Of a DNA stretch of 56,348 bases, positions 1 to 56,049 are shown in pieces. Below the pieces are notes generated by a model that worked only from the letters and a program-made list of their open reading frames with translations, made no database searches and was not told where the DNA came from. This DNA comes from a virus. Lineage: Duplodnaviria > Caudoviricetes. The stretch lies in IMG/VR virus record IMGVR_UViG_3300032260_000005, positions 1 to 56,348 of that record; one strand, 5' to 3'. Position 1 is the first letter of the stretch, and each line of letters opens with the position of its first letter. Both the position numbers and the translations under genes were made by a program.

Positions 1-106
1 ATATCCATTTTCAACCTCGCGTATAACAAAGCAAATCAACTGGACGCTGAAAGCTCTGCGGGTTTTAAGTTAAGCGCCGTGGTGGCGCAAGTTATTTGCG
101 ATGTTA
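1..106. repeat. Terminal direct repeat (identical to 56243-56348); assembly circularity overlap
   Basis: First 106 nt equal last 106 nt; the cassette of ORF 56044-56271 joins attC 21-109 across the junction. Confidence 0.95.
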
Positions 107-109
107 GGC
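21..109 (+). repeat. attC-like site
   Basis: R'' GTATAAC, 5 nt, L'' AAATCAAC ... L' GTTATTT, 5 nt, R' GTTAGGC; GCGTATAAC is the exact complement of GTTATACGC at 56043. Confidence 0.9.
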
Positions 110-370
110 TTCAGTTATTAAGACCCAGAAATTGTCGTCAATTACTTTCTGAAACTCTGGCGGCAAATCCTCCTGGTTTTCCAAAGCTCGCATAAACTCT
201 CTATCTATGCCACAAGTAACATGCATAGGCATTATTTCCTGCCGCTTGCTGCATGCAGGGCAAACGTGAACCATCTTTTTGCCTTGCGGTATCACGATAT
301 GCTGAGGCGGGTTGTGCTCTGGGTGCATGCACATATCTGGTTTAGGTATATCTTCAAAATGTGTTGGCAT
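104..370 (-). CDS. Cassette ORF, Cys/His-rich hypothetical protein
   Basis: 88 aa, CMHPEH and HVCPAC motifs; stop TAA lies in R' at 103; upstream GAGG. Confidence 0.7.
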   Translation of the reverse strand: MPTHFEDIPKPDMCMHPEHNPPQHIVIPQGKKMVHVCPACSKRQEIMPMHVTCGIDREFMRALENQEDLPPEFQKVIDDNFWVLITEA

Positions 371-391
371 TCTATATATCCTCTTCGATTC

Positions 392-477
392 GCCTAACCA
401 TGCAAATCAATCTGAGCAGGTTAGTCTTTAGTTCTGTTCTGGCACTGAGTGTGCCAGCTTATTTGCAATGGTTATGT
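392..477 (+). repeat. attC-like site
   Basis: GCCTAAC ... CTTATTT ... GTTATGT; R'' complements GTTAGGC at 103. Confidence 0.85.
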
Positions 478-741
478 GTAGCCACGCCTTATTGCTTCGT
501 CACGCCTTTCAGCGTCCTGTCTGTTCCAGTGGTCGTATTCCGCATTGTGCCGATCAAGCTCCATCTGGTTTTGCCTGCAGCATTCTTCGCAGTAGCCTTC
601 GTGCAATTCTTCCATAGGCTCTCCGCATTGAGAGCAGTGCAAATCACACATAACAATGGCATCAACGGTGGACGCACCTAGTCTGTGCGCCAATTCAAGT
701 GCTTCTTGGTCTTCGTGTTTTACTGCTGGTTTATGCTTCAT
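472..741 (-). CDS. Cassette ORF, Zn-finger-like hypothetical protein; starts inside its attC
   Basis: CSQC...CEECC; GGAGG RBS and ATG lie within attC 648-780. Confidence 0.7.
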   Translation of the reverse strand: MKHKPAVKHEDQEALELAHRLGASTVDAIVMCDLHCSQCGEPMEELHEGYCEECCRQNQMELDRHNAEYDHWNRQDAERRDEAIRRGYT

Positions 742-780
742 CGTATTTCCTCCGGTGCGCCAGTTATGCTGTCGTTATGT
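648..780 (+). repeat. attC-like site
   Basis: ACATAAC, GCATCAAC ... GTTATGC, GTTATGT; ACACATAAC complements GTTATGTGT at 471. Confidence 0.85.
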
Positions 781-996
781 GTCATAAAAGCTTTCAAACC
801 CAATGCAACTAACAACCACCTTAAAACCTTCGTGCATTTCAGCGCGTTTATCAACATGCCTGCAATCCTGCAAAACGCGAGTGCATGTTTTGCACAATGA
901 TGTTGGGTATATTGAGTCCCTTATTGCCGCTTTGCCACATAACACGCCGTTCGAGGTGACAGAATCACCATCAGCGCCTTGTTCTGAATCTTTCAC
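775..996 (-). CDS. Cassette ORF, Cys-rich hypothetical protein
   Basis: 73 aa; GTG start within attC 937-1023; stop in R' at 774. Confidence 0.55.
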   Translation of the reverse strand: MKDSEQGADGDSVTSNGVLCGKAAIRDSIYPTSLCKTCTRVLQDCRHVDKRAEMHEGFKVVVSCIGFESFYDT

Positions 997-1023
997 GTCT
1001 GCACCTCAACTAAAATGTTATAC
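937..1023 (+). repeat. attC-like site (identical to 4007-4093)
   Basis: ACATAAC, GTTCGAGG ... CCTCAAC, GTTATAC. Confidence 0.9.
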
Positions 1024-1308
1024 AGTCAACGCACCTGTTGTCTTTGCGTACTCCATAAACTGGGACACCCTGGCTTTCTTGGCGTTAATTGCCTGTAGTG
1101 TGCCGCTCTTTTCAATAATTCCGCATTCTTCTAGCATCTCAATAACGGCGATTATGTCACAGCACTCAATAGCAATATCTTCAGCATTTGTTGTGTTGCC
1201 TCCTGGGTATCCATCCTCTGTTCCAAACCGCAAGGCTTTTGTGGCAGCTTGTTGTATCTCTGCGGCCTCTTCAATTAAGCAGGCTAGTAAGTGTTCTCTT
1301 TTATTCAT
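1018..1308 (-). CDS. Cassette ORF, MazG-like NTP pyrophosphohydrolase
   Basis: LIEEAAEIQQA ... IAIECCDIIAV (EExxE ... ExxD metal-binding pattern). Confidence 0.7.
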   Translation of the reverse strand: MNKREHLLACLIEEAAEIQQAATKALRFGTEDGYPGGNTTNAEDIAIECCDIIAVIEMLEECGIIEKSGTLQAINAKKARVSQFMEYAKTTGALTV

Positions 1309-1327
1309 ATCTGCGTGTCCTGTTGCT

Positions 1328-1412
1328 GAATAACAATCACTTCAATTTGACTGCGTGGTCATCGGCGCTCTTTTAGCTATCTGTGGGCAGCAGCTCATTA
1401 GCAACGTTATAC
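1328..1412 (+). repeat. attC-like site (eroded L boxes)
   Basis: GAATAAC ... GTTATAC; CTGAATAAC is 8/9 complementary to GTTATACAG at 1017. Confidence 0.65.
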
Positions 1413-1414
1413 CG

Positions 1415-1657
1415 CTACTGAACTGTACTTCTCTTCCAGTCAGCAATGCCTTCATTTTTAGCAATGTGGTTTGTAGTCCCTTGCATCCGGTCAACTGCCT
1501 CTTTCTGTCCTACGACTGCACACATTCCCAGCCCGCACATGCTGGCTAATTTCATCAGCACATTGGCAACGTCTTGCTCGTTTTTGCAGTCGCACGAATT
1601 TACATATTCTTCTACTGTTTTATTAGCCAGCTTTTCAGCTTCTTTCGGTTTTATCAC
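1415..1657 (-). CDS. Cassette ORF, hypothetical protein
   Basis: 80 aa, GAGG RBS, fills the space between two attC sites. Confidence 0.65.
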   Translation of the reverse strand: MIKPKEAEKLANKTVEEYVNSCDCKNEQDVANVLMKLASMCGLGMCAVVGQKEAVDRMQGTTNHIAKNEGIADWKRSTVQ

Positions 1658-1672
1658 GTTGCCATCCTCGCG

Positions 1673-1796
1673 TTATAACAAGTCGCATTAACTCGGACAC
1701 ATGCCGCAGTGTCCGGCGATCAAGTTTAGTTAAATGTTTCCGTCGTTCTATTCGTATTCAGTGTTGGCATGTGCTCGGTTATGCGCAACGTTATGC
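1673..1796 (+). repeat. attC-like site
   Basis: TTATAAC, GCATTAAC, CACATGCC ... GGCATGTG, GTTATGC, GTTATGC. Confidence 0.85.
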
Positions 1797-1800
1797 AGCC

Positions 1801-2010
1801 TTAATAATTGCCATCGTTCAAAATAGTTACGCTTTCAAAAGTTGTACTCAAAAGCACCATCTCCCCAGGCACGGCTGTTTCCTCTAAGCCCATATCAACA
1901 AGGCTACGGTTCAACGCTTCTGCGGCTTCTTCAGGGTTCTCTGCAACTACCACGGCGGCAGTGCCTACAGGATAGTGGCCTGTAAAACAATTATTGAAAT
2001 ATACGTTCAT
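1801..2010 (-). CDS. Cassette ORF, hypothetical phage protein
   Basis: 69 aa, TAAGGA RBS, ends NDGNY. Confidence 0.7.
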   Translation of the reverse strand: MNVYFNNCFTGHYPVGTAAVVVAENPEEAAEALNRSLVDMGLEETAVPGEMVLLSTTFESVTILNDGNY

Positions 2011-2030
2011 AGCGGTTCCTTATTAAATTT

Positions 2031-2115
2031 GCATAACCAGCCGTTCGAGGTGACAGCGAGGTCAATGCGGTTTGTTCTGGTTTCGGTGGGCTGCACCTCA
2101 ACTAAAATGTTATGC
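2031..2115 (+). repeat. attC-like site (arms shared with 937 and 4007)
   Basis: GCATAAC, GTTCGAGG ... CCTCAAC, GTTATGC; R'' complements R' at 1790. Confidence 0.9.
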
Positions 2116-2154
2116 CGCACACTCTACCAGCTGTGCGGCTTGCCTGTTTTGCTA

Positions 2155-2355
2155 TCAGGGCTTTCCATTATCGAGGTAGTCAATGTCTTGCGGTGCGTTT
2201 CTTAGTGAGCAATACTCAAGTTCCACTTTTAGCGAGTGAATAATTTTTCCTGCACTATTATTCATTTCAGAAGCCCGCTTCACATCAATTTTCCCGTTTT
2301 TTACATCTTGAAACAACTCTGATAGCTCTTTTCTCAATTCTACGATATTGTTCAT
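2155..2355 (-). CDS. Cassette ORF, small helical hypothetical protein
   Basis: 66 aa, overlaps the stop of 2352-2732; AAGGAG RBS. Confidence 0.7.
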   Translation of the reverse strand: MNNIVELRKELSELFQDVKNGKIDVKRASEMNNSAGKIIHSLKVELEYCSLRNAPQDIDYLDNGKP

Positions 2356-2732
2356 GTTCTACTCCTTATCTCTCGTTTGATTAAAATATTTAGTGCTTTT
2401 GCGGTTACTAATTCAGGCTCCTTAAACCTGTAGCGGTTTCTGACTTGATACTCTGCGTAGGCAATCGGGTTTGATTGCCTCCATTTCTTATGGCTTTCTA
2501 GACACCTTTCAGGGTTTCTTTGCTGCCATTCTTTTGCATGCTCGGGGTTCTTTTTTCGCCAAGCTAGGGCTTTGATTTTAATTCGCTCTTTATTCAGCTG
2601 ATAATACTTAGCATCTTCTTTACTTTTACACTCCTTGCATACAGTAGCCAGCCCATCTTTTGAGGCTGAATGTTTGCGGTAGCAATGATCTTGCTTTGTG
2701 ATGCCGCATTTCTTACAAGTTTTCTCGCTCAT
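2352..2732 (-). CDS. Zn-finger basic protein resembling the N-terminal part of HNH homing endonucleases, no catalytic HNH
   Basis: CKKC ... CKEC and repeated W(R/Q)xxNPE motifs. Confidence 0.6.
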   Translation of the reverse strand: MSEKTCKKCGITKQDHCYRKHSASKDGLATVCKECKSKEDAKYYQLNKERIKIKALAWRKKNPEHAKEWQQRNPERCLESHKKWRQSNPIAYAEYQVRNRYRFKEPELVTAKALNILIKREIRSRT

Positions 2733-2905
2733 GATTTGCTGCTCTCTTTCATAACACTTGCTACAGAAAGAAGAGATGCGGATAAAATGCTGTCTACAAT
2801 CTTTATTGCTCTTTCTTTTGTTAATCCGTCAACCGAGTGTGCTAACAATAGCACTGCGTTGTTTTTTAGAATTTCTATTTTTTCATCAATAGTTTGTTCT
2901 GTCAT
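2729..2905 (-). CDS. Small ORF missing from track (58 aa, MTEQTIDEKIEIL...)
   Basis: Translated by hand; AGGA RBS; TGA overlaps ATG of 2732. Confidence 0.55.
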   Translation of the reverse strand: MTEQTIDEKIEILKNNAVLLLAHSVDGLTKERAIKIVDSILSASLLSVASVMKESSKS

Positions 2906-2930
2906 AGCTTTATAGTCCTGTGTCAGTCCG

Positions 2931-3020
2931 GCCTAACCAGGCAAATCCAGCGGATGCCGATAGTCGTGTGCGTTTTAGTCTATTACCGCGCTAGGCACAG
3001 CTGATTATGCAACGTTATGA
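2931..3020 (+). repeat. attC-like site
   Basis: GCCTAAC, AAATCCAG ... CTGATTA, GTTATGA. Confidence 0.8.
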
Positions 3021-3377
3021 CTCTTCTTCATACCGTGCTTTAAACCATGTTGCTATTCTGTTGCGTTCAGCATCATCAAGCATCTCATCAAACTCCCACA
3101 TGATCTGATTCAGGCAGTCCATGCAGTCAAGCTCGGCATCACGATTGATTAGGTTTCGAGTGATGCTCATCTTTACCGGCCCAGGTTTGCGCATCTCTTC
3201 GATTAATTTAGCATCAGCCTTATATCCGTCAAATGATTCTGAGCCGTCACAAAACAACTCACTTGATCGACCAGAAAATCCTTTTAAGAATTGCTCAACT
3301 TCTGGTTCTGAATCAGCATTTGCAACAATGTGGTAAACAGTAAAATCTGTCATAACAATTAGCTCCAGGCGACGCAA
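3015..3377 (-). CDS. Cassette ORF, hypothetical protein (alternative start ATG at 3353, overlapping R'')
   Basis: 120 aa; stop in R' at 3014. Confidence 0.65.
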   Translation of the reverse strand: MRRLELIVMTDFTVYHIVANADSEPEVEQFLKGFSGRSSELFCDGSESFDGYKADAKLIEEMRKPGPVKMSITRNLINRDAELDCMDCLNQIMWEFDEMLDDAERNRIATWFKARYEEES

Positions 3378-3451
3378 TAAAGCGGCGCGGTTATCAGTTA
3401 AATTTGAGGTTCAGTAGGCGCTTTATTGCGCCCCTGAGCATGGTGTTAGAA
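3350..3451 (+). repeat. attC-like site
   Basis: TCATAAC, GCTCCAGG, CGCAATAAAGC ... GCTTTATTGCG, CCTGAGC, GTTAGAA. Confidence 0.9.
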
Positions 3452-3718
3452 TGCATCTCGCTCTATGCTCTCTATCTTGCCTCGGCGCTTTTCTATCCGC
3501 TGAGACCATCCGCAATGGGCGCATTCTTTAACTATTGATTGTCTAGCTGGCCCGTTGTACCAAGTACCGTCCGTATCTTTCCATGCCGTGTGGCAATCAG
3601 CCGTCACGCTACCATGCGCATTCCAATGAGGGCACCCGCACTTCGGGCATTCTAACAAGCACGTCAACTCTGACGCTGTGCTGTCACGTGGTTTCTTCTC
3701 TTCGTTTGAGTCAGTCAT
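3446..3718 (-). CDS. Cassette ORF, Zn-ribbon protein; starts inside its attC
   Basis: CPKC ... CAHC; GGGAG RBS within attC 3650-3772. Confidence 0.7.
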   Translation of the reverse strand: MTDSNEEKKPRDSTASELTCLLECPKCGCPHWNAHGSVTADCHTAWKDTDGTWYNGPARQSIVKECAHCGWSQRIEKRRGKIESIERDAF

Positions 3719-3772
3719 TGCCTATCTCCCTTTGCGGCCTAATAGGGGCGCAGGTTACGTTTATCGTTATGT
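3650..3772 (+). repeat. attC-like site
   Basis: TTCTAAC, ACGTCAAC ... GTTACGT, GTTATGT; GCATTCTAAC complements GTTAGAATGC at 3445 (10 bp). Confidence 0.9.
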
Positions 3773-4066
3773 GGCTTTATCGCATGCGTCTAATGCTTCT
3801 TTGGCCCAGGCTTTATATTCGTAGTCCATAGCATTAACACTCACTATCTTTTCCAGGTGGTGTCTATATACCCTGGCCTCAATCTCAAGGTTTCTTGCAA
3901 TGGTTCTGAGTTCTTCATAGCTTTTGCATCGCTGGTACTTGTTGCAAGCCCATGTCTCATTCCCGTCTTCATCAATCCTGGTATAGCGGCCCTGCTTACC
4001 GCAGCCACATAACACGCCGTTCGAGGTGACAGAATCACCATCAGCGCCTTGTTCTGAATCTTTCAC
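3767..4066 (-). CDS. Cassette ORF, hypothetical protein; first 21 aa identical to ORF 775-996
   Basis: MKDSEQGADGDSVTSNGVLCG encoded by the duplicated attC. Confidence 0.65.
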   Translation of the reverse strand: MKDSEQGADGDSVTSNGVLCGCGKQGRYTRIDEDGNETWACNKYQRCKSYEELRTIARNLEIEARVYRHHLEKIVSVNAMDYEYKAWAKEALDACDKAT

Positions 4067-4093
4067 GTCTGCACCTCAACTAAAATGTTATAC
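4007..4093 (+). repeat. attC-like site (identical to 937-1023)
   Basis: AGCCACATAAC complements GTTATGTGGCT at 3766 (11 bp). Confidence 0.9.
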
Positions 4094-4300
4094 AGCACAG
4101 AACCAATCACGAATTCCAGTTAATAGGCTTCGCTTGGGTTTAACTGTGCGGCAGCCACCGCTGTTCCATCCGGCATACCAATTATCAGCAGCGCCATAAA
4201 AGAACTCATCCCCATGGCTTTCGTATGGGCAAGAGCTTTTAGGTTCACCAGTATCTCTGGCCGCCCTGCCTTGCTCGTAAGCTTCTGCATCTGTAGTCAT
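4088..4300 (-). CDS. Cassette ORF, ribosome modulation factor (RMF/CrpP)-fold-like protein
   Basis: AYEQGRAA..G.PKSSCPY ... WYAGW resembles RMF (RGYQAGIAGRSKEMCPY ... WLGGW); GGAG RBS before ATG 4300. Confidence 0.6.
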   Translation of the reverse strand: MTTDAEAYEQGRAARDTGEPKSSCPYESHGDEFFYGAADNWYAGWNSGGCRTVKPKRSLLTGIRDWFCAV

Positions 4301-4318
4301 ATTTTCTCCGTTCGTGCT

Positions 4319-4407
4319 GTATAACAAAGGCAATTAACAATGGACGTATTCTTCATTTGTGGCAATTTCTAGCACCCAGCGCCGCCAGTTATTAGCCAAC
4401 GTTAGGC
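4319..4407 (+). repeat. attC-like site
   Basis: GTATAAC ... GTTAGGC; GTGCTGTATAAC complements GTTATACAGCAC at 4087 (12 bp). Confidence 0.88.
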
Positions 4408-4638
4408 ATCAAGCCTGAATGTCATCGCTTCGTTCTCAGTTATACCCTCATGTATGCAATCTGCGAAATACACAATCCCGTCTGTTGCGCGGATAAACCT
4501 CCATCCAAAAAACGAATCAGCACCTATATTGCCAGGAAGGTCATCCGGGTATTCAATAGCGTTTACTGCAAGCCATCTCATCGCATGCAATCTATTTGGC
4601 TTGTTCTTTGGTCTGAATTTCAATATTTTCGCAATCAT
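4402..4638 (-). CDS. Cassette ORF, hypothetical protein
   Basis: 78 aa; stop in R' at 4401. Confidence 0.65.
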   Translation of the reverse strand: MIAKILKFRPKNKPNRLHAMRWLAVNAIEYPDDLPGNIGADSFFGWRFIRATDGIVYFADCIHEGITENEAMTFRLDA

Positions 4639-4642
4639 AATA

Positions 4643-4810
4643 TCAATCCCATATCACCTGCGCAGTCATTTCACATTGGCGCTTCTTTTTGTCCAGAAAA
4701 ACAGCAACCCTCTGTCTTCCAGCATGCCCCGCTCCATCACTAAATCTTCTGCTTTCGTAGCGCAAGAGTTTGTTTGGTGGTCTGCAATAAACTGGTATAT
4801 ATGGTTTCAT
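4643..4810 (-). CDS. Small ORF missing from track (55 aa, MKPYIPVYCRPP...)
   Basis: Hand translation; fills the cassette upstream of 4638. Confidence 0.4.
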   Translation of the reverse strand: MKPYIPVYCRPPNKLLRYESRRFSDGAGHAGRQRVAVFLDKKKRQCEMTAQVIWD

Positions 4811-4817
4811 GTTCGAT

Positions 4818-4900
4818 GCCTAACAAGTAAAATCTAGCTGACGGGTCAAGTTCAGCGGCAAAATATACACCCAGAGCCGCAACTAATTTTCATGTTAGCC
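4818..4900 (+). repeat. attC-like site
   Basis: GCCTAAC, AAATCTAG ... CTAATTT, GTTAGCC; GATGCCTAAC complements GTTAGGCATC at 4401. Confidence 0.85.
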
Positions 4901-5380
4901 TTCAACGATGCGGCGCAAGCTAATCGGTGAGTATTCGTGTTCAATGAACACCAGCTTATGCCGCGGGTCTGTTTTATCTTCCGGGTGGTGTCCAGTATTG
5001 TGGTGGTGTCCATGCACGTTAATATAATCACCATCGTCATCAATTGGCTTATGGGTAAGCACGATAGTTTTGCCAAAAATATTAAGTTGCACTCTGTCAC
5101 CTACAAAGTCCCACCCGTTCCGGTGATACCATGTGTTGCTCTTTCTGTCATGGTTCCCGCGAATAAGCCACTTTTTACCAGAGCACATCATCATGAATTT
5201 TTGATGCCAGTACTCATCTTTACCTATGCAAAAGTCACCAAGGTGAATTAGCACATCATCAATGTGTATTTGACTATGTAGCGTTTTAAAAATGCGCTCT
5301 TCAAAATCCTGCGGGCGCTGGCAATACTCATGCATTTGCTCATCCCCAAAGTGCGTATCTGTAATTACCCAATAATTCAT
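4895..5380 (-). CDS. Calcineurin-like metallophosphoesterase
   Basis: DTHFG, HLGDF, RGNHD, THKP, HGHHH motifs. Confidence 0.9.
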   Translation of the reverse strand: MNYWVITDTHFGDEQMHEYCQRPQDFEERIFKTLHSQIHIDDVLIHLGDFCIGKDEYWHQKFMMMCSGKKWLIRGNHDRKSNTWYHRNGWDFVGDRVQLNIFGKTIVLTHKPIDDDGDYINVHGHHHNTGHHPEDKTDPRHKLVFIEHEYSPISLRRIVEG

Positions 5381-5390
5381 TTCAAATCCA

Positions 5391-5467
5391 GGCTAATCAG
5401 CGATGTTATTCCTACCCAGAAAGCCCCGTAAATGGGGCGGGCTAGAGATAATCAAGGACTGTTAAAA
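5391..5467 (+). repeat. Degenerate attC-like site at promoter-proximal end of array
   Basis: AGGCTAAT is 1 nt from the expected AGGCTAAC; GTTAAAA at 5461 contains the stop of the next ORF; arms poorly paired. Confidence 0.4.
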
Positions 5468-5827
5468 TCGCCTCTCATCTAAGTATTGCCGACTTCTAAA
5501 CTCTACGCCATTATTGTAAGCATCAACAGATGCCTCCATGTCCTCGTTTATATCCTCTGTTGCTCTGTGTTCTGCGTAGGCGTCGCGCACCTCGCTTAAT
5601 GAATCGTGCATGGCCTCAACCTCATCAGAGCTTGGTGTATTCCCTGTCAGGAATACCCTGCAAGCCCGTAGAGCAATAATGTAAACCATTCGCTCATCTG
5701 AGCTGCTTCCAATAATCTTTTGCTCTCCATCCGTCCATTCAACCCCATCCATAAGTAGTTTACCTGTCTGGTCATCATCAATCCGCTGTTTCCATTCTTT
5801 GATTTGTTCTTTAGTAGGCGTAATCAT
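5462..5827 (-). CDS. Hypothetical protein, first gene of leftward early operon
   Basis: 121 aa, AAGGA RBS, downstream of promoter. Confidence 0.7.
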   Translation of the reverse strand: MITPTKEQIKEWKQRIDDDQTGKLLMDGVEWTDGEQKIIGSSSDERMVYIIALRACRVFLTGNTPSSDEVEAMHDSLSEVRDAYAEHRATEDINEDMEASVDAYNNGVEFRSRQYLDERRF

Positions 5828-5862
5828 GTGGTTATCCTTTTGTTTTATTGCTGGTGTGATTG

Positions 5863-5892
5863 TACTTTAGCTCAAAAAGCTTACCCGGTCAA
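5863..5892 (-). promoter_or_regulatory. Leftward sigma70-like promoter
   Basis: TTGACC-17 nt-TAAAGT on - strand. Confidence 0.65.
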
Positions 5893-5916
5893 CGCATTAA
5901 CATGCGTATAGCGCAC

Positions 5917-5945
5917 TTGACTGCTTTTTAGATATAGGCAATAAT
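5917..5945 (+). promoter_or_regulatory. Rightward sigma70-like promoter
   Basis: TTGACT-17 nt-AATAAT; ATG follows 6 nt later (leaderless-like). Confidence 0.65.
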
Positions 5946-5951
5946 GAAAGC

Positions 5952-6188
5952 ATGAAAAAGATAATGTCAGCTTCCAGAGTAGTGCGAGACCTTCAACAGA
6001 GGGTTAAGGTTCTAAAAAAGAACGGCGTAACCTACAAGGCCTTACAGGATAAAGCCGGAGTAAAAGCACGGTGGTTTTTATATTTCAGGAATAGGGAAGA
6101 CCCAAATACTGAAACGCGTCTATTAGACGCCCTTGAAAGGGCGGTGGTGTATTATGAAGCTGCTTTTCAGCAGAAAGAGAATACCTGA
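5952..6188 (+). CDS. Cro/XRE-like helix-turn-helix regulator
   Basis: GVTYKALQDKAGVKARWF ... NTETRLLDALERA pattern; position at divergent promoters. Confidence 0.6.
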   Translation: MKKIMSASRVVRDLQQRVKVLKKNGVTYKALQDKAGVKARWFLYFRNREDPNTETRLLDALERAVVYYEAAFQQKENT

Positions 6189-6205
6189 AATAGCTGGTTT
6201 CTTCG

Positions 6206-6340
6206 GAAGAACGATTAGCTAACCTGCACAGCGAGGAATTAACTATGTACTGTGATAAATGTGGAAGATTTTGGGAAGAGTGCGAATGTGACGAAAAGGC
6301 GCAAAAGAAAGCTGTGTCTGCGTTGAGCGGCTTGTTAGAA
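6206..6340 (-). repeat. attC-like site, last of array C; non-consensus R' (GTTCTTC) at junction to backbone
   Basis: On + strand: GAAGAAC-5 nt-GCTAAC ... GTTGAGC-5 nt-GTTAGAA. Confidence 0.7.
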
Positions 6341-6613
6341 GGCACTTGCACCAGTGCGGCATCTTGCGAGAACCAGGAGCCTGTTACTGTTGAGAGCTTG
6401 CTTGCAGCTAAGAAAATGATGGATGAAAAATTCCCCGACCCTATTGCACAATGCATGAGGGAAAAAGGATTTGACCCGAATAATGGCGGCATTCTCTTTT
6501 TACACGAATCAATGAGGAGAGAAATGCCATTTATACCTAGCTATGTGCGTTTCTCTTCACTAATTGATGCGCCCCTATTGATTGACAGCAGGGTAGTGCC
6601 GGGTGCCTTCTAA
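6245..6613 (+). CDS. Cassette ORF, hypothetical protein; starts inside its attC
   Basis: GAGGA RBS; CDKC..CEC N-terminus; TAA at crossover 6611-6613. Confidence 0.65.
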   Translation: MYCDKCGRFWEECECDEKAQKKAVSALSGLLEGTCTSAASCENQEPVTVESLLAAKKMMDEKFPDPIAQCMREKGFDPNNGGILFLHESMRREMPFIPSYVRFSSLIDAPLLIDSRVVPGAF

Positions 6614-6696
6614 CGCCCAAAATAACTGGGCGCGTGACCAAGTTTAAATAGAAGCGGGGCGCTTTATTCGCTCCATGTTGATTTTGATTGTTAGAG
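6608..6696 (-). repeat. attC-like site
   Basis: TTCTAAC, AAATAAC ... GTTGATTT, GTTAGAG; GTGCCTTCTAAC complements GTTAGAAGGCAC at 6334 (12 bp). Confidence 0.9.
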
Positions 6697-6832
6697 GCGC
6701 TACGGAGTAACAAATGAGACAAGATTGCCATTATTACCATGAGTGCAAATTGCCAGCCCAACTCTGTAACTCAAAGTGCAAAGAGTTTAAAAAGGCAGAT
6801 TGGGGTGGGATTAAACCAAAGAGGAAAAAGAA

Positions 6833-7021
6833 ATGAGCGACCATAAATATTGGGATGAGGATGTAGAAAAAGCCGTAAACAATGCATGCATTGGCAATGA
6901 AGACTCTTACGAGATTCAGTTTAAAGAGCCAGTGGAGGCATTCAATATCCATAAAGATGATGTTATTCACTTAGCAAAGTGTTTTGGGCTTGCTGTTTAT
7001 GAGAAAGATACTGCCCTCTAA
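6833..7021 (+). CDS. Cassette ORF, hypothetical protein (preceded by a 40-aa Cys-rich ORF at 6714-6836)
   Basis: 62 aa, GAGG RBS, TAA at crossover. Confidence 0.65.
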   Translation: MSDHKYWDEDVEKAVNNACIGNEDSYEIQFKEPVEAFNIHKDDVIHLAKCFGLAVYEKDTAL

Positions 7022-7139
7022 CATCGTTATTAACCGGCGCTTGCGCCGAAAAGGAGCCATAAAATGAATGAGAACGAAACCGCAGAAACAACGCCAGCCG
7101 CTGAGCTTGAAGCGTCCGCGTTGAATAACCTTGTTATGC
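7016..7139 (-). repeat. attC-like site containing RBS and start codon
   Basis: CTCTAAC, TATTAAC ... GTTGAATA, GTTATGC; AAGGAG and ATG 7064 lie inside. Confidence 0.9.
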
Positions 7140-7372
7140 GAACCCATGAGACTATTTATCTAATCCCTACTGAGGAAGGTATGGAGTGGTGTGTTGGCCC
7201 AGCACCCGGTAACGATATGGAAGAAAATTACTCGGTCAGATATGTTAGATCTGACATCCATGAAATGGAGCTAAAGCGACTGAGCGACATGCTTTTAATT
7301 GAGCGAAAGGCACATATCAGAGTGAAAGCACGGGTTGAAGAGGCTGTGGCCACACTTAATAAAATATACTGA
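7064..7372 (+). CDS. Cassette ORF, hypothetical protein
   Basis: 102 aa; N-terminal about 25 aa encoded by attC. Confidence 0.7.
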   Translation: MNENETAETTPAAELEASALNNLVMRTHETIYLIPTEEGMEWCVGPAPGNDMEENYSVRYVRSDIHEMELKRLSDMLLIERKAHIRVKARVEEAVATLNKIY

Positions 7373-7373
7373 C

Positions 7374-7462
7374 GCATAACGATTAATTGAGGAGCGCGGC
7401 GCTCCCAAGCTTGAACAAAACGCCGCTAATTAAACCGCGTCTGCTCGAATGACGTGTTATAC
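7374..7462 (-). repeat. attC-like site
   Basis: GCATAAC, ATTGAG ... CTCGAAT, GTTATAC. Confidence 0.85.
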
Positions 7463-7483
7463 AGCGAGATTATTTAGGAGACT

Positions 7484-7807
7484 ATGATGGATATACAAAG
7501 ACTGAGAAACCTAACCACAGGTAGATTGCACACGGAAATGGGCCATATTTACGAAGACCTCGGCATGCTCACTGGTGAAGAAGGATTGATGACTCATATG
7601 CTGCCAAGAGCAATGAAGGCGGTTGAGCCATGGCTGCGAGAGAACGTGAAGGATGGGCGATTTTGGGATGACGAATACGACACCACCCATGTTGGCGAGT
7701 ATGACTTGCCAGTACCAACTGAGGCAGACCAGAAAGTTTTCCTTGAAAGATATGCAGAAATGCCAAACCCATTAGCTGGAAAAGAGGTGATAGGGGCAGC
7801 TGTATAA
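7484..7807 (+). CDS. Cassette ORF, hypothetical phage protein
   Basis: 107 aa, AGGAG RBS, TAA at crossover. Confidence 0.75.
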   Translation: MMDIQRLRNLTTGRLHTEMGHIYEDLGMLTGEEGLMTHMLPRAMKAVEPWLRENVKDGRFWDDEYDTTHVGEYDLPVPTEADQKVFLERYAEMPNPLAGKEVIGAAV

Positions 7808-7933
7808 CATCGCAATTAACCCGACCACGGGCAGACAAATAAGGACTATATGAAATGACTAAATCGAACGAAAGCAACCAAACAGAAAACGAGCACCACA
7901 GTAGTGGGTCGGCGTTGAATTGCCTTGTTATGC
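7802..7933 (-). repeat. attC-like site containing RBS and start codon
   Basis: GTATAAC, AATTAAC ... GTTGAATT, GTTATGC; GCTGTATAAC complements GTTATACAGC at 7456. Confidence 0.9.
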
Positions 7934-8217
7934 CTACCGATATGAAGGTGCATCTTGTAGAGGTTTTTTATCAGCGCGGTGACCCTGCTTTTACATGCGG
8001 ATCAATTGGCCACTGGTGTATAGAGAATTTATTAACCATTGAAGCTCAAGTTAATGATGGGATGGATGATGAAGACAAGGCCAATCTTTTTACTGATGGA
8101 GATGGATCATATCTTTTTGACATGAGTTTTGAGCCGCCAGATTATGAGTTAGGCGGCATAGGTGATGGATACTGGTATTTCGAGAAAGTTAAATACAAGC
8201 CTGTGATTAAGGCATAA
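7855..8217 (+). CDS. Cassette ORF, acidic hypothetical protein
   Basis: 120 aa; starts in attC; TAA at crossover. Confidence 0.7.
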   Translation: MTKSNESNQTENEHHSSGSALNCLVMPTDMKVHLVEVFYQRGDPAFTCGSIGHWCIENLLTIEAQVNDGMDDEDKANLFTDGDGSYLFDMSFEPPDYELGGIGDGYWYFEKVKYKPVIKA

Positions 8218-8298
8218 CGTTTAGTTGAGGTGCTGCCAGCACCGACAATAAAGAAAGGCGCTAATGGTGGCGCAGTCAGCTCTAACGGCTTGTTAGGG
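8212..8298 (-). repeat. attC-like site (same family as 937/2031/4007, inverted)
   Basis: GCATAAC, TTTAGTTGAGGTGC ... GTTAGGG. Confidence 0.8.
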
Positions 8299-8319
8299 TG
8301 CATTTTAAGAGTAACGATC

Positions 8320-8520
8320 ATGACAAAAGAAGAATTAGTAGATGAATTCTCAGAGCTTGCAAAGGCTGACATAGAGGGGGCTTTACAGGTTATCACCGGC
8401 CTTTTTGTTGGACTGAATGTGGCGTTTGTAGAGCTACGGGGTAACGACGGGGATGGCAGTAAACAGATAACAATAGATGGGCCTGAGGGGCAGCGAAAGA
8501 TTACGATCCATGCAGCATAA
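8320..8520 (+). CDS. Cassette ORF, hypothetical protein
   Basis: 66 aa from ATG 8320 (track start 8230 lies in attC). Confidence 0.6.
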   Translation: MTKEELVDEFSELAKADIEGALQVITGLFVGLNVAFVELRGNDGDGSKQITIDGPEGQRKITIHAA

Positions 8521-8598
8521 CACTTAATTAATTTGCGGCGCATTGATGCATATACGACCGCGAATGAAGAATACGTCAAATTTAATGTTTTGTTATTT
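8515..8598 (-). repeat. attC-like site (partly eroded)
   Basis: GCATAAC ... GTTATTT with AT-rich arms. Confidence 0.7.
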
Positions 8599-8619
8599 TG
8601 CGAGATCGAGGAAACAGAA

Positions 8620-8853
8620 ATGAATAGAAGATTATTTGTGAAAGGTGCGGTTGCCTTAGCTATTGTCCCAGGTGTTGTTTTGAGTGCCAATAAACCAAGA
8701 TTGCACACTTTTTCCAACCTAGTTGGTGTAGACGGCAAACCGATCACTGTGGAGATATACCCAGAGCAAGAGGCATCATTTGCAACTGCTGGCAGGGCCG
8801 GGAGACACAGCGCATTAAACCTGGACAAGCTATGCAGGGCACGGAGGGACTAA
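8620..8853 (+). CDS. Cassette ORF with twin-arginine signal-like N-terminus
   Basis: MNRRLFVKGAVALAIVPGVVLSA; GAGGA RBS; followed by 41-aa membrane ORF 8853-8978. Confidence 0.6.
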   Translation: MNRRLFVKGAVALAIVPGVVLSANKPRLHTFSNLVGVDGKPITVEIYPEQEASFATAGRAGRHSALNLDKLCRARRD

Positions 8854-8980
8854 TGCTAGCGTATCTAGAAATGGTATTGACAGCGTTTATATTTATTGCA
8901 ATAGGGGCTATTAGCGTAGAGCTGATAGCAGTAAAGCTAGGGCTGTTACCAGGGGTGAAACTCCCTTGGGACGATTAGCC

Positions 8981-9068
8981 AAATAACATTCAAAATCAGG
9001 AGCGGCACTCGGTGCCTGCTTAAAAACCACAACGCTTAAACCCGTCTGCTGAATTTTGTTGGTTAGGC
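8981..9068 (-). repeat. attC-like site
   Basis: AAATAAC, CAAAATCAG ... CTGAATTTTG, GTTAGGC. Confidence 0.8.
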
Positions 9069-9099
9069 GATTTGATGAACCGGAAACTAGGAGCTGAAA

Positions 9100-9330
9100 A
9101 TGGAAAAACAAGATATTAAGAAGGGCGACTTGGTGCAACTGAACCCGGAAACCGTGGGTAATAAGATGTTCACAGCATGCATTATGGTAATTACTGAGCC
9201 TAAGCCATGGGGCGCGCAAGGGTATGTGCAAGCTTTTGGCGTTGAAGGTGGGCGCGGTGGCCAAGCATATTACAGGGCTAAATGGGAAGAGATGGAGTTA
9301 GTAGGGCATGCTGAATGGGTTGCAGCCTAA
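9100..9330 (+). CDS. Cassette ORF, small SH3/KOW-like beta-barrel protein
   Basis: IKKGDLVQL N-terminus; AGGAG RBS; TAA at crossover. Confidence 0.7.
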   Translation: MEKQDIKKGDLVQLNPETVGNKMFTACIMVITEPKPWGAQGYVQAFGVEGGRGGQAYYRAKWEEMELVGHAEWVAA

Positions 9331-9448
9331 CATCGTGCTTAACCTGGCCACGGCCAGACAACACTGGACACTATGAATATGAACAGTACAACTGAAACCA
9401 AAACCAAACACCGCAGTAGTGGATCAGCGTTGAAGCACCTGGTTATGC
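9325..9448 (-). repeat. attC-like site containing start codon (related to 7802-7933)
   Basis: GCCTAAC, GCTTAAC ... GTTGAAGC, GTTATGC. Confidence 0.9.
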
Positions 9449-9864
9449 GTGATCCTAGCGCCCAAATTAAAGCATGGATTAATGATAGCTATGAGCAATG
9501 GCAATTTTGGCTAACTGTAGTTTCTGCTGAAAATTATGATGGACTAGATAAAACAAAAGAGCAGGCAGAAAACTTGGTTGGCTACTACGAAGGCCAATAT
9601 GACCTAGCTTGTGATGTGCGTGATTTTGTTTCCCAGCAAACAGTAAGTGATGGCAACGCTTTTGACCTTGGTACAACTTTTAAAAAACAAGGTCGCAAAG
9701 ACAAGGATCGAATCTACACGGTAGAAGATATTTACACCACAACCAATATAGCTGGGCATGTAGTTAAGCAGCGGTACGTTGCATCATCCACCTTCTGCGG
9801 GCAGAAAGTAACTGATAGAGATATACCCAGCGCAACTATAGCTAGGGGACGGTGTGACGCATAA
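9373..9864 (+). CDS. Cassette ORF, hypothetical protein
   Basis: 163 aa; starts in attC; TAA at crossover. Confidence 0.7.
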   Translation: MNMNSTTETKTKHRSSGSALKHLVMRDPSAQIKAWINDSYEQWQFWLTVVSAENYDGLDKTKEQAENLVGYYEGQYDLACDVRDFVSQQTVSDGNAFDLGTTFKKQGRKDKDRIYTVEDIYTTTNIAGHVVKQRYVASSTFCGQKVTDRDIPSATIARGRCDA

Positions 9865-9947
9865 CAACGTAAATAACCGGGCGCGTGCCCAACTTTAAAT
9901 AAAACCACTACTGACGGGGCGCTCCGAGTTGATTTGCCTTGTTAGGT
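9859..9947 (-). repeat. attC-like site (related to 6608-6696)
   Basis: GCATAAC, AAATAAC ... GTTGATTT, GTTAGGT. Confidence 0.9.
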
Positions 9948-9963
9948 TACAGGAGAAACAACC

Positions 9964-10266
9964 ATGAAAGCTATAGGCTACACAGTAAGCACCGTTGTAA
10001 TAATGTTTTTGCTATGCGTATTTAGTGGATACACGTTAAGCATTTTGTGGCAGTGGTTTGTTATGCCAATATTCCCTGCCCCAGAGCTTACGATACCGAC
10101 CGCTATCGGCCTTGCCATGATAGTTACCTATTTGACTCATCAGGACACCAAGAGCGATACAGAAGGGAAAGGATATGGAGAGATACTTCTGGAGATGACA
10201 TTAAAAGGCATTGGCAGACCAGCTGGCGCTTTATTCTTTGGCTGGATAGTAACTCTGTTTTTGTAA
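9964..10266 (+). CDS. Cassette ORF, membrane protein (about 3 TM segments)
   Basis: Hydrophobic stretches; AGGAG RBS. Confidence 0.75.
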   Translation: MKAIGYTVSTVVIMFLLCVFSGYTLSILWQWFVMPIFPAPELTIPTAIGLAMIVTYLTHQDTKSDTEGKGYGEILLEMTLKGIGRPAGALFFGWIVTLFL

Positions 10267-10363
10267 CCTAACAGGTAATATTCGGCACTCGACTGAATTA
10301 CTCAGGTATTAATCGCTCCGCAGCCTTAACTGTTGTGCTGATTGCGGGATATTCGGCAGGCAA
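10267..10363 (-). repeat. Candidate attI-like site, inverted copy of 49210-49307
   Basis: Near-identical 97-nt inverted repeat whose identity ends at the GTTAGG core; TGTAACCTAAC complements GTTAGGTTACA at 9941. Confidence 0.65.
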
Positions 10364-10382
10364 TAATTAGGAGAAAATTAAC

Positions 10383-10601
10383 ATGGCAAAAATCAGAATC
10401 TCCAAATTTAGTTTCCGCAAAGAATGCGAGGAAACAAAAACTATCACCGCTTTCGTGCTGTTTAGAGGCCATAACGTAGGCATAGCAAGGGTTAATGGCA
10501 AGTGGTGGTTTGCTAATGACACGCTACCTGAGCTGACAAAAGAGGAGCAGGAATATTGCGCACAAATGAACTTCGAGGCAGAACAATGCGATACCCAATA
10601 A
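10383..10601 (+). CDS. Hypothetical protein
   Basis: 72 aa, AGGAG RBS. Confidence 0.6.
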   Translation: MAKIRISKFSFRKECEETKTITAFVLFRGHNVGIARVNGKWWFANDTLPELTKEEQEYCAQMNFEAEQCDTQ

Positions 10602-12968: not shown

Positions 12969-13454
12969 ATGACAGATGACCATCAAGATCTAGCGGATAG
13001 GCTGAAAGAGCCGTTTCCAGTTAAATCGATACATTGGCGAATTGGCGCAAGAACGAGAGATAAGACCAAAGGGATAGCCCTCGCTTATATCGATGCCAGG
13101 GACGTTATGCACAGGCTTGACACAGTGGCTGGGCCTCTTAAATGGCAGTGCAGATATTCACACGTTACAGCTAAAGGCGTTATCTGTGAGATTGGTATAC
13201 ATGTTGATGGTGAGTGGATATGGAGGGCAAATGGCGCTGGTGACACAGATGTTGAGGCTGAAAAGGGCGCAATGTCAGACGCATTTAAACGAGCCGCTGT
13301 GATGTGGGGTATTGGTCGTTATCTCTATATGCTGCCTAATACGTGGGTAGCTCTAGAAAATGAAGGGAAGAAGCTCTCAGGCACACCTAATCTGCCTGCA
13401 TGGGCTACACCTGAAGGCTATAAGGCAGCACTTGAAAAAAGGAGCGCAAAATGA
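12969..13454 (+). CDS. Rad52/Sak-like single-strand annealing recombinase
   Basis: LAYIDARDVMHRLD ... EAEKGAMSDAFKRAAVMWGIGRYLY. Confidence 0.9.
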   Translation: MTDDHQDLADRLKEPFPVKSIHWRIGARTRDKTKGIALAYIDARDVMHRLDTVAGPLKWQCRYSHVTAKGVICEIGIHVDGEWIWRANGAGDTDVEAEKGAMSDAFKRAAVMWGIGRYLYMLPNTWVALENEGKKLSGTPNLPAWATPEGYKAALEKRSAK

Positions 13455-45228: not shown

Positions 45229-45513
45229 TTAGATCAGACCCCTGGCCCTTAAGATTAATATAATTTCATGAACTTCTTGATCTTGTATCCTGGCTATTCT
45301 CTCATGATACTGAATATTAGCCCATGATCCTTGTCTTGGCTCTTCCCCGCCTCCAGGTGCTGGAGTTATTGGCCCTCCAATGGCTGTCCCAGCGCCATCA
45401 ACCCATATACCCGTTAATGCAAGATAGCTTCTCCAGCCTGCCTGAGATACAGAAGGTGGAGAGCTAGGCCATACGCCCGTTAAGCCTAGTATCCCACCCC
45501 AGCCGCCAGCCAT
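45229..45513 (-). CDS. Hypothetical protein
   Basis: 94 aa, coupled to neighbours. Confidence 0.55.
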   Translation of the reverse strand: MAGGWGGILGLTGVWPSSPPSVSQAGWRSYLALTGIWVDGAGTAIGGPITPAPGGGEEPRQGSWANIQYHERIARIQDQEVHEIILILRARGLI

Positions 45514-49180: not shown

Positions 49181-49209
49181 CAATATCCTTATACCAGTCC
49201 ATTCTGTTT

Positions 49210-49308
49210 TTGCCTGCCGAATATCCCGCAATCAGCACAACAGTTAAGGCTTGAGGCTGATTTAATACCTGAGTAATTCAGTCGAGTGCCGAATATTACC
49301 TGTTAGGC
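49210..49308 (+). repeat. Candidate attI-like site heading array A
   Basis: Inverted copy of 10267-10363; internal direct repeat TGCCGAATAT (49215, 49287); ends in GTTAGGC. Confidence 0.65.
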
Positions 49309-50291: not shown

Positions 50292-50354
50292 GCCTAACCA
50301 GGCAAATCAACGCGGACAGCAAAAAGCGTTGCCGGTTATTTGCGGATGTTATGT
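50292..50354 (+). repeat. attC-like site (63 nt)
   Basis: GCCTAAC, AAATCAAC ... GTTATTT, GTTATGT; CGGCCTAAC complements GTTAGGCCG at 49302. Confidence 0.92.
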
Positions 50355-50563: not shown

Positions 50564-50686
50564 ACATAACAAGCCAATTAAAGCTGACTTGCTACCGCGT
50601 AGTTTAATTTAAAGTTTCTAGTGTTCGTTTTGTTTCAGTGTTTCCAGCGTCATCAATTCGCAAGCAGTTTATTGGTGTCGTTATGC
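50564..50686 (+). repeat. attC-like site
   Basis: ACATAAC, CAATTAAA ... TTTATTG, GTTATGC; ACACATAAC complements GTTATGTGT at 50348. Confidence 0.85.
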
Positions 50687-50687
50687 C

Positions 50688-54013: not shown

Positions 54014-54085
54014 CTTTTCGCCCCTCCATGCCTGGTTTTTATAAGGCTATCAACTTGTTATAAATAGTTACGTTTAAACGCATGC

Positions 54086-54106
54086 AGGATATTACATGTT
54101 AGGCCG
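54086..54106 (+). repeat. Third attI-like core heading array B
   Basis: GGATATTACATGTTAGGCCG vs GAATATTACCTGTTAGGCCG at 49291; GTTAGGCC complements GGCCTAAC at 54515. Confidence 0.5.
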
Positions 54107-54515: not shown

Positions 54516-54575
54516 GCCTAACAAAACGCTGCACCAGACACTCGCTTCGCTCGTGCAGTGAGCTAAGTGTTAGGC
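54516..54575 (+). repeat. attC-like site (60 nt, classical short type)
   Basis: GCCTAAC AAAAC GCTGCAC ... GTGAGC TAAGT GTTAGGC. Confidence 0.9.
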
Positions 54576-55979: not shown

Positions 55980-56049
55980 CCCTAACAAAGCGCTGCACCA
56001 GACATTCGCTGCGCTGCGCTTGCTCATGCATGTGAGCTAAGTGTTATAC
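55980..56049 (+). repeat. attC-like site (arms shared with 54516)
   Basis: CCCTAAC AAAGC GCTGCAC ... GTGAGC TAAGT GTTATAC. Confidence 0.9.

Follow-up and report, generated by a model that had tools for sequence, protein, structure and literature searches.

The window, i.e. the whole stretch of DNA analysed here, is a complete IMG/VR virus record (IMGVR_UViG_3300032260_000005) of 56,348 bases from a sediment phage (CheckV completeness 100%), with a 106-nt repeat at both termini. In two of its regions (1-10,300 and 49,200-56,348) most gaps between short genes hold sites resembling the attC sites of integrons, and these sites, together with the gene cassettes that they delimit, are the subject of this study. 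The genome encodes an Sf6-like small terminase, a large terminase, an SU10-like portal and a beta-helix tail protein, and a ResIII/DEAD helicase is also present. Genes are directed leftwards from ~5830 and rightwards from ~5950, and lie on the minus strand from 15961 on. Both arms are probably transcribed from the central region (5830..5950) at which they diverge.

Read in the direction of the genes, the gaps have a recurrent layout: the stop codon of a gene lies within a box xxxTAAC; after a few bases come two arms with a variable core between them, then a few further bases and a box GTTAxxx, and last the ribosome-binding site (RBS) and the start of the next gene. The curated list comprises 27 sites (60-133 nt), each with xxxTAAC at one end and GTTAxxx at the other, in three arrays: 49302-50686, 54098 across the terminal repeat to ~5400, and 6217-10272. 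The cassette arrays amount to ~17 kb, roughly 30% of the genome. They lie where the original prediction, made from the sequence without database searches, had placed them, and its 27 sites were re-curated. The attC grammar that it described is correct for the boxes, but the order of an 8-nt L'' followed by a 7-nt L' on the plus strand applies only to the arrays of minus-strand genes and is reversed in the right arm.

The features are listed below. R1 denotes a covariance model built from phage sites only (a "training member" is a site used to build it), "cross-ORF extension" is the number of nucleotides beyond the core that pair across an ORF (open reading frame), and L234, L240 and L310 are related loci considered further on. 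The basis for listing sites 648-780 and 6217-6340 was box pairing and arm pairing only.

49190..49308 (-): array-end element T2; same element as 10266-10375; ATATTCGGCA at 49296 and 49224, minus strand
50292..50354 (-): attC-like site upstream of the methyltransferase cassette 49303-50274; training member, R1 43.4 bits; 9-nt pairing of GTTAGGCCG with 49302-49310
50564..50686 (-): attC-like site; R1 41.3 bits, E 1.8e-6, outside training; core 83% like L234:5513-5565
54050..54104 (-): end of the origin-crossing array; partial relative of the T element after xxxTAAC (from sequence comparison of the three elements)
54516..54575 (-): attC-like site; R1 32.5 bits, training member; GTTAGGCC box pairs with 54098-54105
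55980..56049 (-): attC-like site; R1 38.5 bits, training member; cross-ORF extension 5
21..109 (-): attC-like site across the terminal repeat (56263-56348); R1 67.1 bits, training member; fits the 23-base two-arm pattern
392..477 (-): attC-like site; R1 54 bits, training member; cross-ORF extension 5
648..780 (-): long site, loop holding the start of ORF 472-741; 31-nt arms, 71% complementary; own and cross box pairing; no R1 match at E<=1
937..1023 (-): attC-like site, loop holding the GTG start of ORF 775-996; R1 63.3 bits, training member; arms GTT-GAGGTG / GTT[C]GAGGTG
1328..1412 (-): attC-like site; R1 45 bits, E 2.6e-7, outside training; cross-ORF extension only 2
1673..1796 (-): attC-like site; R1 22.3 bits, E 0.033, outside training; 88% identity over 120 nt to L234:4751-4870, box-bounded, flanking ORFs unrelated
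2031..2115 (-): attC-like site of the GTTGAGGTG type (third copy); training member, R1 67.1 bits; chain to previous site broken (extension 0)
2931..3020 (-): attC-like site, followed by the three-ORF cassette 2155-2905; R1 58.3 bits, training member; cross-ORF extension 4
3350..3451 (-): attC-like site; R1 26.7 bits, E 0.0033, outside training; cross-ORF extension 6
3650..3772 (-): attC-like site, loop holding the start of ORF 3446-3718; R1 32.9 bits, E 1.3e-4, outside training; cross-ORF extension 7
4007..4093 (-): attC-like site, identical copy of 937-1023; R1 63.3 bits; cross-ORF extension 8
4319..4407 (-): attC-like site; R1 56.3 bits, training member; cross-ORF extension 6
4818..4900 (-): attC-like site that follows the phosphoesterase gene 4895-5380; training member, R1 53.2 bits
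5830..5950 (.): central divergent region; best promoter-like matches 5917-5945 (+) and 5892-5864 (-); switch of gene strand and of GC skew
6196..6213 (+): palindromic hairpin, ends GTT...AAC, on the promoter-proximal side of the right arm; in L310 its GAAGAAC directly precedes the first full site
6217..6340 (+): first right-arm site; loop holding the RBS and first ~30 codons of ORF 6245-6613; GTTAGAAGGCAC box pairs over 12 nt with 6603-6614; no R1 match at E<=1
6608..6696 (+): attC-like site; R1 59.7 bits, training member; cross-ORF extension 8; R stem, internal loop, bulged L stem
7016..7139 (+): attC-like site, loop holding the start of ORF 7064-7372; R1 29.2 bits, E 9e-4, outside training; cross-ORF extension 4
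7374..7462 (+): attC-like site; R1 55.4 bits, training member; cross-ORF extension 4
7802..7933 (+): attC-like site, loop holding the start of ORF 7855-8217; R1 37 bits, E 1.6e-5, outside training; 93% identity to L240:5916-6047, flanking ORF bodies differ
8212..8298 (+): attC-like site; R1 68.3 bits, training member; 94% identity to L240:7166-7254
8515..8598 (+): attC-like site; R1 66.1 bits, training member; chain to previous site broken (extension 0)
8981..9068 (+): attC-like site; R1 62.7 bits, training member; L240/L310 identity stops directly after its TAAC
9325..9448 (+): attC-like site, loop holding the start of ORF 9373-9864; R1 21.8 bits, E 0.043, outside training; cross-ORF extension 3
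9859..9947 (+): attC-like site; training member, R1 69.4 bits; 11-nt pairing of its GTTAGGTTACA box with 10262-10272
10266..10375 (+): array-end element T1; begins directly after xxxTAAC; ATATTCGGCA twice, at 10278 and 10349; ~92% like 49190-49308

The stretches 934-1025 and 4004-4095 are identical 92-nt copies of one site, to which 2031-2115 is related, and all three adjoin unrelated genes. In the GTTGAGGTG site type the ribosome-binding site is supplied by the arm itself.

Fold and family of the intergenic sites

The R boxes of attC sites have the form RYYYAAC/GTTRRRY. The phage sites are likewise bounded by inverted R''/R' boxes with conserved AAC...GTT and, when the gene-sense strand is folded as DNA, they form an R stem, an internal loop and an L stem (L''/L') bulged on its 3' arm, with an unpaired spacer of 3-6 nt between the two stems. 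A structural alignment was made of 30 sites from the window and two other phage records. No pairs were predicted by RNAalifold on the MAFFT alignment of these 30 sites, because the arm registers differ among site types; the consensus structure was therefore written by hand and then tested against shuffles and slid controls. In this structure 90.6% of cells pair (72.6% in shuffles), and the covariation score of 0.366 (0.100 in shuffles) was reached by none of the 500 shuffles, while the slid controls all remained at or below 0.062. All 30 aligned sites have TAAC and GTTA without variation, the four R pairs are constant, and 28 sites have an unpaired T; the columns average 49% identity, and 75 cells are changed on both sides of a pair. 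Extrahelical bases occur on one arm only, after 5-6, 3 and 3 pairs, which is the spacing found in the Vibrio integron used as a control. As in attC sites, structure is conserved above sequence, the loop is variable and the length falls within ~55-140 nt.

Searched with R1, the window gave 25 distinct matches at E<0.05, all of them within the arrays and on the gene strand; apart from these, the window gave at E<=1 just two weak opposite-strand echoes of array sites, and there was no match between 10.4 and 49.2 kb. No match at E<=0.001 was found in 889,078 bases of 100 other viral loci. These negative controls were the first 100 loci from scans of viral contigs with one-arm patterns (14 specified bases), in which the matches listed fell one per contig and were treated as chance. 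The same phage-derived model recovered 13-14 attC sites at their exact coordinates in the integron of Vibrio phage MK672802, 9 sites in a bacterial array adjoining intI (genome G002) and ~17 sites in a chromosomal array (genome G004). In Tetrasphaera phage TJE1 it found exactly three sites, behind orf1, orf2 and orf3. For this phage a cluster of three attC sites and four ORFs has been described, and the two sites tested both recombined with attI1 by IntI1 (PMC9892861). Bacterial loci were scanned for sites with a strict version of the pattern, the loose AAC/GTT scan giving too much noise for chains to be counted.

The commonest phage site type has a 23-base two-arm pattern that was found in 57 stretches of bacterial genomes, against ~0.5 expected by our own arithmetic. 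Judged by record titles, these belong mostly to Gammaproteobacteria of sediments, symbioses and sulfur habitats. An integron integrase (TIGR02249, above the NCBIfam cut-off) was present in 5/5 pattern-bearing genomes tested and in 0/14 control genomes. In G002 the pattern-matching site is an attC located 800 nt from intI, and in G004 it lies inside the chromosomal array. There, a single site of the GCAAAT[C]AAC type (L306:13266-13339) stands alone amid an array of a different, uniform type; it seems to be an imported cassette, and the site type seems to travel widely between phyla. In the viral contig collection the two-arm pattern had no match, in a scan that may omit records close to the window.

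Hairpins with extrahelical bases, among the things asked for with the original prediction, were found, and the covariance test, run in the reverse direction with a model of the phage sites, recovered real attC sites. On sequence and predicted fold, the phage sites belong to the attC family of integrons. At least two such sites are clustered in each array with no integron integrase nearby, and no complete integron (intI with an adjacent attI and the promoter Pc) was recognised in the window; what the lytic phage carries is therefore three CALINs, integrase-less arrays of cassettes (the name stands for attC clusters that have no integron integrase).

Pairing across genes and polarity of the cassettes

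The boxes pair across genes far more often than within sites. Of 24 junctions, 19 show perfect complementarity between the 7-nt box in which a gene ends and the box beyond that gene, and in 11 of the 24 this cross-gene match extends to at least 9 nt. Within a site, by contrast, the 7-nt box matches its partner in only 3 of 27 cases. The three array-end junctions (10272, 49302 and 54098) match too, over 8-11 nt. As a background, with a first-pass site list in which four coordinates were mis-set, 9% of 531 comparisons between unrelated boxes gave a match at all three variable positions. When GTTA...TAAC inverted pairs were sought without bias, 13 of at least 9 nt were found, every one inside the arrays and none in the other 39 kb. 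The three examples of such complementarity on which the original prediction was founded proved exact (4087/4325, 12 nt; 6334/6614, 12 nt; 3445/3656, 10 nt), and its view of the pattern as the signature of integron cassettes is borne out by the same cross-cassette pairing in the Vibrio phage MK672802 integron and in the G002 array adjoining intI. In L234, a locus of another phage record (G007), the chain is perfect at 8/8 junctions. An R' complementary to the next R'', the trace left by a G|TT crossover in attC arrays, is accordingly present.

The orientation of the sites relative to the genes is the reverse of that in integrons. The bulged arm has the same orientation relative to the genes in 20/22 window sites, and the R1 strand is the gene strand in 25/25 window matches, while in the three integrons and TJE1 it is opposite to the ORFs. 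On the ORF strand, the extra-base arm of the Vibrio integron sites adjoins the stop codon, that of the phage sites the following gene. Strands were also counted, more crudely, by asking which one has the longest ORF between sites. In phage records this was the model strand in 10/11 decisive intervals and the opposite strand in 1/11 (15 ambiguous); for bacterial loci the figures were 4/38 and 34/38 (6 ambiguous), and for the Vibrio integron 1/9 and 8/9 (5 ambiguous). For three genes with Pfam matches (methylase, DUF7736 and DUF5658), the coding strand is the model strand. In the phage, genes are thus encoded on the strand whose fold resembles that of the recombinogenic bottom strand, so the cassettes are inverted relative to classic integrons, to every bacterial control array and to TJE1; the classic arrangement, an ORF on the attC top strand with the site downstream of it, is not the one seen here.

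The usual crossover takes place at G|TT of the attC top strand, and the bottom strand recombines far better than the top. Since the coding strand is the bottom-like strand, the mobile unit in the phage would consist of a site plus the downstream gene or genes, ending at TAA|C, and the invariant TAA would be both the stop codon of the gene and the last three bases of the cassette. At least eight ORFs start within a site loop and read through the 3' arm (472-741, 775-996, 3446-3718, 3767-4066, 6245-6613, 7064-7372, 7855-8217 and 9373-9864), which accounts for shared N-terminal stretches such as SALNxLVM. The TAA of the box closes an open frame of at least 35 codons in 23/30 boxes, compared with 79/494 for all TAAC in the genome. 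Starts inside the loops and stops in the box TAA fit the inverted unit and not the classic one. The products of ORFs 775-996 and 3767-4066 have their first 21 residues in common and then diverge.

The T element closes the arrays directly after xxxTAAC and is followed by core genes, at 10266-10375 (+), 49190-49308 (-) and, in part, 54050-54104 (-). It contains two copies of ATATTCGGCA ~71 nt apart and is also present in L240 and L310. The position of T1 is that of attI if the array is read on the attC top strand, and the element may be an attI-like insertion point. The TJE1 cluster is reported to be adjoined by a similar terminator with two inverted GTTRRRY boxes, comparable to the hairpin 6196-6213 (PMC9892861).

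The content of the cassettes is mostly without recognisable affiliation. Family matches were obtained for DUF5658, DUF7736 and an N6/N4 DNA methyltransferase (cassette 49303-50274; Pfam methylase match 9e-35), and most cassette ORFs had none, so that their description as typical phage early genes in the original prediction was not substantiated. ORF 4088-4333 gave a sub-threshold match to ribosome modulation factor (RMF). Many cassette proteins are small, rich in CxxC pairs and zinc-ribbon-like (e.g. 6245-6613, 3446-3718, 472-741 and 775-996), nearly all of them without a family. No tRNA was found in the window by ARAGORN. Elsewhere in the genome, 39541-45228 (-) encodes a 1,895-aa polyvalent protein with LPD5, LPD1 and RadC-like JAB domains, and at 12969-14134 a Rad52-like annealing protein adjoins a PolB-exonuclease-like protein; this module could be a source of single-stranded DNA or of extra, homology-driven exchange between sites.

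Natural variants and the turnover of cassettes

A megablast of 1-10400 against GenBank phages gave no match, and tblastn of the helicase against the same phages found only relatives at up to 31.5% identity, none of them close. A single helicase query retrieved no related loci; these were found with an alignment of 25 helicase homologues. A metagenome scan for variants returned the L240 contig (again, as L309) and one new contig, L310. L240 and L310 are contigs from other samples, and the three records differ in the number of cassettes between the central region and the T element: ~12 in the window, ~9 in L240 and 2 in L310. The central region of L240 is 99.4% identical to that of the window and a further 2.3-kb block is 98% identical, while its right arm has only one cassette, plus three sites, in common with the window. 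In L310, from a third sample, the central region is 99.8% identical, and the same T element is followed by the gene at 10383 (91.6%).

The single cassette common to all three consists of site 8515-8598 with ORFs 8620-8978. The corresponding block (8575-8988) is 100% identical to L240 and ~90% to L310, and it ends at TAAC. The points at which identity ends are 6224 and 8987, directly behind TAAC, and 6213, behind GAAGAAC; the window and L240 remain alike past the hairpin 6196-6213 up to the TAAC at 6221-6224 and then diverge. The cassette that adjoins T in L240 and L310 is separated from T in the window by three further cassettes, located exactly at the T junction, as would be expected of an attI-like insertion point. 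Cassette gain and loss among relatives, another check suggested at the outset, is therefore seen in these three records, with the breaks at boxes.

Logan contigs from two other studies point in the same direction, since 25/26 of their joint end-points fall in sites (25% expected) and 17/26 lie within 5 nt of a box (8% expected). In contig X3, 4899 is joined to 6610, on opposite strands, inside a common GTTAG. The X1 joint of 106 to 932 lies at the terminal repeat of the record, with 21 letters on one side, and was set aside, as were parts of the window that no contig covers.

L234 (G007) has only the helicase in common with the window (51% identity) and contains 10 R1 matches of the same polarity. 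A complete 60-kb relative (G006, a contig of L233; helicase 52% identical) has no R1 match and encodes a tyrosine recombinase. The 20.7-kb contig of L240 (G008) is composite in its similarity: the first 10,100 bases (L308) are similar to the window at neither the DNA nor the protein level, and the remainder contains blocks 98-99% identical to it. No large inversion between T elements is claimed, since L308 has no similarity to the window. At L240:7900-8000 (-), just after a site, there is a near-consensus sigma-70 promoter (TTGACA, 17 nt, TATAAT) followed by several ORFs; the window sites have no sigma-70 motif of this kind.

Proposed recombination mechanism and comparison with known systems

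The claim that the genome has no tyrosine recombinase withstood a six-frame search of the complete record, which gave no match at E<=1 to PF00589 and none to PF00239 (serine recombinases). For PF01797 (Y1) there was only an 11.9-bit match, below the cut-off and inside the helicase gene; with no Y1 (HUH) transposase above the cut-off, REP/RAYT or IS200-type elements were rejected. G007 and G008 have no PF00589 match either. As the phage has no recombinase of its own by these searches, the enzyme acting at the sites is most likely a host integron integrase, acting in trans.

Taking the evidence together, we consider it probable that these are true attC sites, arranged in three CALINs of inverted cassettes that are exchanged by the integron integrase of the host. 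The two arms diverge from the central region, which probably contains their promoters, each ending in a T element beside core genes, and cassettes would be gained, lost and swapped by IntI-type recombination at TAA|C, presumably through circular intermediates. The host integrase would act on single-stranded phage DNA during infection. The inverted polarity may matter here: were replication to start in the central region (5.8-5.95 kb), each arm would have its folding strand on the lagging-strand template. A bolder version, in which a group of lytic phages runs an integron-like library of its own, with the entire early accessory set made up of polarity-inverted cassettes, starts in loops, ends at the crossover TAA, T as attI and the host integrase as motor, is possible but rather doubtful.

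Several points weigh against the reading considered probable. No recombination event or circle junction was observed, the data being Logan contigs and not raw reads, and many Logan joints have fewer than 30 letters on one side and are possibly repeat-derived. The L240 contig may be a chimera or a mosaic. The R1 E-values are rough, and the matches in the Vibrio integron are weak (E 5e-4 to 0.2). The polarity count is weak as well, 15 of its 26 phage intervals being ambiguous and one opposite, and the chain is imperfect at 5/24 junctions. When 131 array ORFs were compared by tblastn with the fetched bacterial loci, only the methylase matched. Some sites are conserved while both flanking ORFs differ (8212-8298 in comparison with L240; 1673-1796 in comparison with L234); a single crossover point alone does not predict this, so that reuse of site families (as in chromosomal integrons) or extra events are needed. 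That the host carries an integrase is an assumption, and several phage proteins have no family match (e.g. 45513-47345, 610 aa), among which an unrecognised recombinase is possible.

The last point leads to the view, which we regard as unlikely, that an unrecognised phage-encoded enzyme, and not a host integron integrase, moves the attC-like sites. Sizeable proteins without a Pfam or PHROGs family are indeed encoded at 45513-47345, 47342-48142 and 48142-48711. Integron integrases are usually SOS-induced, and dependence of a lytic phage on such a host enzyme would be an awkward design. Nevertheless, the same site family occurs in integrase-bearing bacteria (the 57 stretches and the 5/5 positive genomes), the window and G007 both have arrays but no detectable common protein except the helicase, and the six-frame searches revealed no tyrosine, serine or Y1 recombinase. 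Homologous or single-strand-annealing recombination between repeated sites, for which the likeness to attC would be irrelevant, is quite improbable as the whole explanation. The phage does encode a Rad52-like annealing protein and an exonuclease, and the joint of 6633 to 9871 falls not at a box but within arms that are alike in two related sites; arbitrary crossovers, however, would not yield complementarity between the box before and the box after a gene (19/24), and the sites have little sequence in common (the 49% mean column identity). The promoter-plus-stem-loop motifs (PeSL) of T4-type phages are proposed to act via homologous recombination, but promoter-like (15 vs 19.2 expected) and terminator-like motifs (8 vs 10.4) are not enriched at the phage sites, and the absence of motif enrichment also led us to reject promoter or terminator cassettes. 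Annealing may add events on top of site-specific exchange.

It appears very unlikely that a bacterial cassette array was captured once or a few times and survives in the phage as passive relics, with no recombination at the sites there. The phage sites do belong to a bacterial site family, and temperate Vibrio phages are reported to have picked up pieces of chromosomal integrons (PMC9892861), but flanks that are 98-99.8% identical enclose 2, ~9 or ~12 cassettes with breaks at boxes, each of the three arrays is co-oriented with phage transcription in the two diverging arms, the polarity is opposite to that of bacterial arrays, and ORF starts are built into the sites. Hardly credible as the sole explanation is a function of the hairpins in RNA (processing, stability or termination of early transcripts), with the DNA pattern as a by-product. 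As it is the transcribed sense strand that folds, the hairpins are part of every mRNA, and attC sites are regarded as weak terminators (PMC9892861). An Rfam search, however, gave no family match, terminator-like sites are not enriched, and the cross-gene pairing, the box breaks in variants and the fact that bacterial cassettes have the same sites on their non-coding strand would be left unexplained; an additional RNA role alongside recombination may exist. None of these alternatives explains the chain rule and the bacterial kinship together.

The accessory genome of this lytic phage is built from cassettes that turn over between near-identical backbones, which provides a concrete and testable route for the gain and loss of phage ORFan genes and thereby for phage mosaicism. 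Integrons are seen as bacterial devices. The arrays suggest that a phage can borrow this adaptive enzyme of its host and exploit it to shuffle accessory genes, and the inverted polarity offers a natural experiment on how strand choice, replication and transcription bear on attC activity. Under the bolder version, the inversion would separate the two cassette pools, phage and bacterial, at the level of expression: bacterial cassettes landing in the phage would be antisense, as would a phage cassette behind a bacterial Pc. Storage of anti-phage defence genes in chromosomal integrons has been reported (bioRxiv 10.1101/2024.07.02.601686). The phage-side store may hold counter-measures to such integron-borne defence, and under the bolder version it would be the mirror of chromosomal integrons on the side of the phage.

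Small integrase-less attC clusters of phages are in print: 17 CALINs, each of at least two sites, were reported in 10,705 genomes of virulent phages and discussed as a possible transfer route (PMC9892861, Qi et al. 2023). The original prediction knew of none as the organising principle of a phage genome; neither arrays of genome scale nor inverted polarity in phages was found in the literature searched, although the supplement of PMC9892861 could list a larger array. Integrase-less phage attC clusters as such are already known, and it is the scale and the polarity that are new.

The system can be compared with three others. The PeSL of T4-type phages are repeated intergenic promoter-plus-terminator motifs that, like the sites described here, flank variable accessory genes and mark break-points of gain and loss in lytic phages; the present sites differ in having no promoter-like motif, in their attC fold and in the box pairing left by a fixed crossover point. 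With bacterial sedentary chromosomal or complete integrons (the MK672802, G002 and G004 controls) they have in common the xxxTAAC/GTTAxxx boxes, the 3-nt spacer, the extra bases after 5-6, 3 and 3 pairs, the cross-cassette pairing and families of similar sites with unrelated ORFs. Unlike these integrons, the phage arrays are without intI and without a recognised attI or Pc, their ORFs are on the bottom-strand side, and they form two diverging arms in a lytic phage carrier. The third counterpart is the TJE1 CALIN, in which, according to its published description, attC sites likewise stand between short ORFs, the phage has no integron integrase and a DNA methyltransferase is among the cassettes. 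However, TJE1 has three sites and four ORFs, compared with ~27 sites in three arrays that make up roughly 30% of the genome in the window. Its polarity is classic, the model strand being opposite to the ORFs, whereas in the present phage the ORFs are on the model strand, begin within sites and terminate in the box, and cassette content varies between near-identical backbones.

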